64,000 nt of DNA from an uncultured bacterium. Its GTDB lineage: Bacteria; Chlamydiota; Chlamydiia; Chlamydiales; CAYWQB01. This document shows positions 57,388 to 58,693 of this stretch, piece after piece. The translations under genes were made by a program, and so were the position numbers. The notes below the pieces were generated by a model. The model was not told the DNA's origin and did not search any database. It was given only the letters and a program-made list of their open reading frames with translations. The stretch covers positions 65,364-129,363 of the forward strand of contig CAYWQB010000002.1 of NCBI GenBank assembly GCA_964460785.1. The letters run 5' to 3'. The stretch's first letter is position 1, and each line of letters opens with the position of its first letter.

Positions 57388-58693
57388 TTATTCCATCAGC
57401 TCATCTATACTGCTCATTAAAAATGGGTGGCTAAGCATATTGTCTGCTGAGAAGATTTCCCCTTCCCCAGCCTTCCCCAAGCAGCAGTTAATAAAATCTA
57501 CAAGTACAGGGCAGGTATCTCTCCCTACTGACTCCGCTAGACCTGACACTGGAGACCTAGAGAGCAGGCCAAAACATAAATAAGCAAGAGTATAGCCTAA
57601 AGAGCATGCATCGGTTTGTGCACTATAAAGACCCCCCATAGCACGGGAGCGTCTCGAAGGGAAGAAGCAAGGCGTTCCAACCCTAGGGGTGATAGGGAGA
57701 TCAAGATCATCCTGGCCTAGCAGGCTTTCCTCAGCAGACATAAGACCTGTAGAAGTTTTCATCGAGCGAGCTAGCCCCATATCGACTAATACAAACTGGT
57801 AGCCTGAGGCTTTTGCTGCATCTTCGATCATTAAAATATTCGGAGGTTTAATATCCCGATGCACTAAATCATAAGCTTGCAAGTGCTTCAGTGCTTGTGC
57901 AATATCACGAGCAAGGTCTTGATGGAAGCAAAGAGCACTTTTTACTTTATCCCTAGCTATAGCGTTTCCATCACGGAACTTTGCATAGTCTAGCCTATGC
58001 AACTGATACTGCTTTCTTACATCGACAATTTCTTTCCCTGGGTAATACTCCATAACAAATATGCGGCGAGCAATACCTTCCACTCCAATTTCTGCTGAGA
58101 AATGCGTTGTTGCAACATTAGGATGGGGTGGAATTGCAGGCGACAGTAAACGCTCTCTACGCACACTTCTGGAGTCTCGCTTTTCTTCTTTTGCCATACG
58201 AACAACATAAGCCTTTCTTTTAAAAGTCGTTCGATAAACCTCTGAAAAGCCTCCACTCCCTATCTGCTCTAGGCTGTTTTTTTTTAGAAGTACAAGACCA
58301 AGATGTCTCTGTCCTTGGGTTAAACTCTCTTTCTAAATGCTTGCAAAATTGAGTAATACGCCGAGCAGAAAATATACGAGAGGAGACCTCGGGGAGCTCA
58401 TCTAAACGATCAAAAACCGCGTTTCGCCGCCTAGTGATCTCCCTGTATTGTCTTTCCGTAGAGGTTTCTTCTCTTACAAGCCTTGGAGGACTATCTAACG
58501 CAGCACGAAGGCCTGCCATATCGAAAGCATCTCTTCTTACTCCCTCTACGACATCTTCACTTCCTCCCCTTACCCTATGAGTAATAGGGCGTCCCCCCAA
58601 TACAACAGGAAGTTCTGGGAGAGGAAGTGCTTCATAAGAACCCCTTATTGATTGGGCTGATGGCCTTGGGGCCACACGACCTATACTTGACAT
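57388..58693 (-). pseudogene. eukaryotic-like Ser/Thr protein kinase paralogue interrupted by a frameshift at an A9 tract
   Basis: The N-terminal ORF 58693-58220 (MSSIGRVAP...) and the kinase ORF ending at 57388 lie in different frames. The kinase frame is open upstream to 58332 and encodes the Gly loop IGSGGFSEVY, but has no start codon before 58197. Removing one A from the A9 run joins the two frames. Confidence 0.7.
58277..58285 (-). repeat. A9 (T9 on plus strand) homopolymer at the frameshift site
   Basis: Read directly: ...ggctg ttttttttt agaag... Confidence 0.9.

Follow-up and report, generated by a model that had tools for sequence, protein, structure and literature searches.

A kinase paralogue of an uncultured chlamydia split at a nine-adenine tract: probably a young pseudogene

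Frameshifts at homopolymers in described systems and at the kinase locus

In the PmpG proteins of Chlamydia, Sigalova et al. (2019) attributed a frameshift at a poly-A tract whose length is fixed to a single pseudogenising event; poly-G or poly-C tracts that vary in length indicate phase variation in PmpG paralogues (PMC6740158). Frameshifts at poly(A) tracts in Buchnera and Blochmannia are rescued by polymerase infidelity, as far as the work is summarized in later accounts (Tamas et al. 2008, in PMC5009743; PMC3017870, PMC5574713). Programmed slippage is described for Shigella mxiE (9 T) and Thermus thermophilus dnaX (PMC5009743) and for Citrobacter rodentium tssM1 (11 A; PMC4256274). Slippage by RNA polymerase is efficient in vivo on nine A's or T's, a run length that matches the 9-10 bp RNA:DNA hybrid, and it adds bases in diminishing proportion (PMC5009743). 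In a transcriptome-wide view of A/T homopolymers, insertions prevail among the slippage products and are mostly of single bases (PMC5574713).

We analysed a kinase paralogue that is split at a run of nine A's, located in a window of 64,000 nt (the whole stretch of DNA that was analysed) from an uncultured chlamydia. The genome comprises 1.95 Mb in 8 contigs, has 43-44% G+C, is 100% complete by marker genes, and is the sole member of its GTDB family; its relatives share the order only. The original prediction had put four explanations side by side without choosing one: a sequencing or assembly error, a recent pseudogene, phase variation, and rescue by transcriptional slippage. Its anatomy of the locus, its frame arithmetic and its exclusion of a -1 ribosomal frameshift stand; the artefact has become unlikely, and of the remaining explanations a young pseudogene is favoured. 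The tract, the coordinates and the frames were re-read from the minus strand and its ORFs, and all were correct. The features of the locus, in window coordinates, are as follows.

58277..58285, minus strand: A9 homopolymer (T9 on the plus strand), the frame-break site, read directly; G000:C2:123640-123648 in contig coordinates
58220..58693, minus strand: N-terminal ORF of 157 aa, with ATG at 58693 and stop at 58220
57388..58332, minus strand: kinase-domain frame (N frame +1), open for 314 codons and then a stop, with a PF00069 match; paralogue homology from 58276
58195..58197, minus strand: ATG, the first start codon (of ATG/GTG/TTG) in the kinase frame; product of 269 aa, as gene callers annotate
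58705..60087, minus strand: intact tandem paralogue of 460 aa, with ATG at 60087, ending 11 nt upstream of the N-terminal ORF

The PmpG case resembles this one in that it comes from the same phylum, concerns an expanded family of the host-interaction type, and has individual copies whose break lies no more than a few bases from a homopolymer (PMC6740158). It differs in that PmpG is an autotransporter adhesin, whereas the gene studied here encodes an ePK-like kinase, with one broken copy and no strain series. The endosymbionts, as summarized in the accounts cited above, likewise have coding A runs of at least nine with a frameshift, some of whose transcripts could restore the frame; however, their genomes are described there as extremely AT-rich, with many such tracts and with essential genes affected. 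Here the G+C content is 43-44%, mismatch repair is intact, A runs of at least nine are depleted in coding DNA, and a single non-essential paralogue is affected. The analogy to endosymbionts drawn in the original prediction is weak in view of the base composition, the intact mutS and mutL, and a total of two homopolymer-linked frame breaks.

In mxiE, tssM1, and dnaX, as at the kinase locus, a run of 9-11 A's or T's joins two frames of one protein, and the length of the run matches that of the RNA:DNA hybrid. In tssM1, productive transcripts carry added A's (PMC4256274), whereas at the kinase locus the commonest slippage product, with one added base, is a dead end. Conservation across a second genus has been shown for tssM (PMC4256274); the kinase split, in contrast, is known from the DNA of one genome.

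The two open frames and their origin in one gene

On the minus strand, the DNA reads ...TGT ACT TCT AAA AAA AAA CAG CCT AGA..., with the nine A's at 58285-58277; this is the only long homopolymer within the 113-nt overlap of the two open frames. The N-terminal ORF consists of 139 codons through the tract, which is read as Lys-Lys-Lys, followed by 18 out-of-frame codons and a stop. The kinase frame reads ...LLKKNSLEQIGSGGFSEVY... and, from the tract onward, KKNSLEQIGSGGFSEVY... As had been claimed, it contains no ATG, GTG or TTG before 58197. The ATG at that position lies 88 nt past the start of the tract and 27 codons past the tract, downstream of the Gly loop and the beta1-beta3 strands, and 22 nt past the stop of the N-terminal ORF. 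Because this is the first start codon in the kinase frame, the called 269-aa product is truncated in the N-lobe, without Gly loop and beta1-beta3. The third frame, which is entered by a -1 shift or through one extra A, reads ACA GCC TAG and stops two codons after the tract. The tract is located 139 codons into a gene of ~435 codons and upstream of the entire kinase domain; a shift at this point abolishes the product.

Four kinds of evidence, in decreasing order of strength, speak for the two ORFs having been one gene: homology, coding signal, the shape of the family, and the motif at the junction. The intact neighbour paralogue (58705-60087) served as the yardstick for collinearity and for the rate tests described below, and both gene pieces were used separately in the homology searches. 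The kinase frame is 41% identical to the neighbouring paralogue (BLASTP, E 3e-73), and the similarity begins right after the tract (residue 19) and extends to the C-terminus. Against the Pfam model Pkinase (PF00069), the frame scores 61.9 bits (cut-off 31.7, E 8e-17). Compared with its intact homologues the ORF is disrupted, as in a pseudogene; the kinase homology extends upstream of any start codon and stops at the tract, so that 27 codons of it, with the Gly loop and beta1-beta3 among them, precede ATG 58197 in the same frame.

A codon-usage log-odds score was trained on 733 long ORFs of the same genome; real genes score 45 ± 14, and their off-frames about -125 and -153. The N frame up to the tract scores +22.8 over its 139 codons, with off-frames at about -106 and -160, and the coding score flips to the +1 frame in windows spanning the tract. 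The region that precedes the Gly loop is 139 aa long in the split copy, 132 aa in the intact neighbour, and 122-178 aa in the closest paralogues; all other family members with an N-terminal region are single ORFs. The first residues are MSSIGRV in the split copy, and MSISRV and MSVHRV in two paralogues. At the junction, the split gene encodes SCTSKKK, and C-x-x-K-K-K precedes the Gly loop in two paralogues on contig C1. The lysines of these paralogues are encoded by AAG AAA AAA and AAA AAG AAA, that is, by runs interrupted by a G. The whole genome contains 74 A/T runs of at least nine in 1.95 Mb; since this amounts to ~0.004 such runs expected in the 113-nt overlap, the position of the tract at the frame junction is not a coincidence.

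The N-terminal ORF itself had no match among the Pfam and NCBIfam models and no significant similarity to the N-termini of the paralogues in BLASTP searches. In global alignments of the N-termini, comparison with shuffled sequences gave z values of about 1 to 3, which are not significant, and a small N-terminal profile found a collinear match that was not significant either (hmmsearch, E 0.046). A full HMMER search of 1.84 billion representatives returned the ORF itself and one weak repetitive match, which makes it an orphan. The collinearity with the intact paralogue asserted in the original prediction thus holds for the kinase domain, whereas at the N-terminus the agreement is limited to a similar length and similar first residues. 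Because the N-terminal similarity to the paralogues is not significant, the case for one gene draws on position, length, coding score, and a weak collinear match; these suggest that the 157-aa and 269-aa ORFs are the halves of one former gene.

That they are instead two separate functional genes, one for a small N-terminal protein and one for an N-lobe-truncated kinase-like protein translated from ATG 58197, is hardly credible. Gene callers do call both, and the ATG is only 22 nt past the upstream stop; however, clear kinase homology precedes this ATG by 27 codons in the same frame, and the family members with an N-terminal region are otherwise single ORFs. A kinase without the Gly loop and the beta1-beta3 strands cannot bind ATP, which also counts against two genes. 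For annotation, the calls of 157 aa and 269 aa are to be marked as one frameshifted kinase gene, not as two proteins.

The tract in DNA and in transcripts

The exact 157-aa and 269-aa products were recovered from Logan contigs of three sequencing runs: SRR15635848 (58.8 kb), SRR15635858 (33.4 kb), and SRR15635857 (1.0 kb). All three run contigs contain A9 and match the window without a single mismatch across the 1.0-6.8 kb that were compared. The tract length is therefore the same in the MAG and in three run assemblies, that is, in four assemblies made with at least two assemblers. A search of 5.8 billion clustered proteins turned up no full-length form of the protein, although its length filter would have let one through. 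The three runs, which have neighbouring accession numbers and identical sequence, may represent one population sampled three times, and consensus contigs cannot show minority tract lengths.

In a crude gene set, the uninterrupted ORFs of the genome contain ~274 A/T runs of eight, 33 A/T runs of at least nine, and 55 G/C runs of at least seven. Only two homopolymer-linked frame breaks were found in the genome, the A9 in the kinase and a G7 in a ShlB/FhaC-type gene. Homopolymers are the classic site of indel errors, and the three runs apparently belong to one study, so a shared platform bias is possible. Nevertheless, if homopolymer errors were systematic, many more genes would be broken, while more than 350 comparable runs of the same genome are in frame. 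With four assemblies in agreement on A9 and a protein search that found no full-length variant, we regard it as very unlikely that a sequencing or assembly error conceals a true tract length that keeps the gene in one frame.

The genome was also scanned for coding-like sequence upstream of first start codons. Of the four top-scoring cases that were inspected, one was a scaffold gap, one a Pro-rich shadow frame, one probably an odd start codon, and the fourth an ORF of unclear nature. This frameshift scan is insensitive away from homopolymers, and the split kinase itself was not ranked highly by it.

A net change of -1 or +2 in the tract joins both parts, in agreement with the predicted restoration of the frame by A8 or A11. 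Such a change can occur in the DNA or in the mRNA, and the kinase frame can also be reached by a +1 ribosomal shift or by ribosomes sliding on the A run; these last two routes had been overlooked. Neither a -1 ribosomal shift nor a +1 insertion joins the two parts. The -1 ribosomal frameshift had been correctly excluded, given that the third frame runs into ACA GCC TAG. The original prediction did not take into account that the commonest slippage product, with one added base, cannot rescue the gene (PMC5574713, PMC5009743). Because this product enters the dead third frame, only the rarer transcripts with a change of +2 or -1 could do so. Since bacterial RNA polymerases slip readily on nine A's or T's, the split gene is, by analogy, probably leaky through RNA-polymerase slippage and not null. 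We found no sign that this leakiness has been selected as a device.

Selected recoding would mean that the split is the normal structure of the gene, with a fraction of full-length protein made through +2 or -1 polymerase slippage or through +1 ribosomal frameshifting or sliding. As in genes that are expressed by slippage, an uninterrupted run of nine A's is located at the frame junction, and the target frame is within reach of +2 or -1 slippage and of a +1 ribosomal shift. Both halves are intact and unaccelerated, the run has the length of the RNA:DNA hybrid at which slippage in vivo becomes efficient (PMC5009743), and the precedents are also secretion-system genes (PMC4256274; PMC5009743). 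However, the most frequent product, with one extra A, stops after two codons, and the RNA around the tract, whose fold is no more stable than those of shuffled sequences (z = +1.19), offers no stimulatory structure. Known +1 ribosomal shifts are stimulated by a slow codon or a stop codon after the run; here the 0-frame codon after the run is CAG, an ordinary codon and not a stop. The paralogues are single ORFs with interrupted runs, and no conservation is demonstrable. About 26 other sense-strand runs of A9 or A10 are located in frame within intact genes; the A9 tract itself is therefore not special. On balance, we consider selected recoding improbable.

The number of sense-strand A runs in coding DNA (crude gene set) drops 9-fold between A8 and A9, from 202 to 22. 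Outside this gene set, the drop in A/T runs from length 8 to length 9 is only 3-fold (from 108 to 36). [quoted passage not shown]

A phase-variable contingency locus, in which the A9 slips reversibly during replication to turn the kinase ON and OFF, and in which the assemblies caught the OFF state, is unlikely. In its favour, the tract lies within the first third of the gene, so that a frameshift there removes the entire catalytic domain; the split gene shows no decay, and a second surface or secretion gene, the ShlB/FhaC-type TpsB transporter, is split at its G7. Paralogues of pmpG in Chlamydia are known to switch at homopolymers; however, the PmpG tracts that vary there consist of 8-24 G's or C's, and fixed poly-A is interpreted as a one-off event (PMC6740158). 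At the consensus level, the kinase tract has the identical length in the three run assemblies and the MAG, there are only two such loci in the genome, and both mutS and mutL are intact. A9 and G7 are also short for classical contingency tracts, which counts against phase variation. More generally, that the A9 is a selected expression device of either kind, a slippage "dimmer" or a reversible ON/OFF switch for an effector-like kinase paralogue, seems to us rather unlikely, and nothing we found favours homopolymer-based control over simple recent inactivation.

The G7 run in the transporter gene is located at C3:26336-26342 (locus L029, 1501-3052). The ShlB/FhaC-type two-partner-secretion transporter gene is split there; a 215-aa ORF holds the POTRA_2 domain, and the next frame (319 aa) holds the ShlB barrel. 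The gene immediately downstream of the transporter gene encodes a TPS-domain protein of ~1279 aa, and the split is reproduced in the Logan run assemblies.

Age of the break and setting of the kinase family

There are no further stops in either part of the split gene. Family-conserved columns were defined leaving out each member in turn; the split copy retains 42 of 56 family-conserved residues (75%) and the intact neighbour 39 of 55 (71%), with a family range of 67-94%. In Tajima-type relative-rate counts with three different outgroup paralogues, the unique changes in the split copy and in the intact neighbour number 27 versus 35, 26 versus 25, and 26 versus 26, respectively. By stops, conserved residues, and relative rates, neither secondary lesions nor accelerated evolution were found in the split copy. 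To judge from these comparisons, the split copy appears to have evolved like its intact sister, to which it is now 41% identical, for nearly all the time since their duplication. This leaves two readings, a recent break or continuing selection on the gene. Because the kinase part has evolved no faster than the intact neighbour and has no second lesion, the break would be young; the absence of decay fits equally well with a gene that is still functional, whether expressed through slippage or phase variable.

We hold it to be somewhat more probable than all other readings taken together that the locus carries a genuine frameshift of one base, fixed recently at a homopolymer hot spot, and that the split copy is a young pseudogene of the fast-turning-over kinase family, probably leaky. 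The ancestral locus would have been a single gene of ~435 codons that encoded a probably disordered N-terminal region and an ePK-type kinase domain. In the split copy, the Lys run before the Gly loop would have become an uninterrupted homopolymer and so a hot spot of replication slippage, and a one-base change in length would have put 139 N-terminal and 296 kinase codons out of register. By standard decoding the locus would now give the 157-aa fragment and no more of the kinase than the 269-aa fragment, which lacks the ATP-binding strands, whereas minority transcripts with two extra A's or one fewer would encode the full-length protein.

The phenomenon is well known, and this instance is new but ordinary in expanded gene families. 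As a young pseudogene, the split copy would illustrate, in a small and clean case, how a kinase family found only in this uncultured chlamydia turns over by birth and death, and how a Lys-run motif became a mutational hot spot once it was an uninterrupted homopolymer. Were the tract to vary in length, or to be read through by slippage, the locus would be a first hint of homopolymer control of a candidate effector in environmental chlamydiae. Homopolymer control is described for the Pmp adhesins of pathogenic Chlamydia and for enterobacterial secretion genes; a selected device at the kinase locus would add candidate effectors of deep-branching chlamydiae to this list.

We detected 12-13 copies of the kinase family, arranged in tandem on contigs C1, C2, C4, and C7. 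It was found only in this genome, and the best outside matches are generic kinases with E values of 1e-5 to 1e-7; a comparison with orthologues is therefore impossible. Neither an orthologue nor a second strain was present among 30 related genomes of the same order, a word search of 5.8 billion proteins and a genome contig scan returned no orthologue, and a pattern of the exact flanks that allowed A7 to A12 matched no other strain in metagenome contigs.

We compared the split kinase to what we take to be its class, the eukaryote-like Ser/Thr kinases of intracellular bacteria, for example the LegK effectors of Legionella and the Pkn proteins of chlamydiae. It shares with them the Hanks/ePK fold and the HRDIKPxN catalytic loop, its gene is located in an accessory block beside a tRNA gene, and no signal peptide or membrane domain was noticed in it. 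Unlike these kinases, it falls below the cut-off of every NCBIfam model (15-17 bits for LegK1, where 550 are required), and the best solved relatives are the eukaryotic kinases CaMKII and TTK (E 1e-7). The split copy has GSGGFS, HRDIKPPN, and the D of DMG; its beta3 Lys is replaced by Arg. Both C2 copies (window 57388-60087) differ from the class in having Arg in place of the beta3 Lys (VVRM and AVRV) and DMG in place of DFG; most other family members have AVK at the beta3 position. To judge by their motifs, many members of the family seem to be atypical kinases or pseudokinases.

On the coding strand, the sole match to a sigma-70-like consensus is located upstream of the neighbouring paralogue; there is none between the two kinase genes, which are 11 nt apart. 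Given this gap and the position of the sole match, co-transcription of both kinase genes is likely. A tRNA-Met(CAU) gene (57305-57379, plus strand) is located 9 nt beyond the stop of the split kinase. Beyond the tRNA gene, the two kinase genes, a double-GNAT gene, and a gene for a low-complexity protein form what looks like an accessory block.

The other kinase arrays are located at C4:265900-269030, at C1:53126-58950, and on contig C7 (9.9 kb), which carries four tandem paralogues from ~2070 to 7310. Degenerate HRD/catalytic loops occur in several of the paralogues on C1, C4, and C7. The tandem kinases of C7 suggest a recent local amplification, which may explain why this contig stayed out of the chromosome assembly. 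Just upstream of the C4 array, a long coding-like ORF without a start codon (C4:264249-265403, minus strand) runs into a scaffold gap of 100 N; it is an incompletely assembled repeat-containing gene, with the repeat unit RAGVAPRTVEPEAS.
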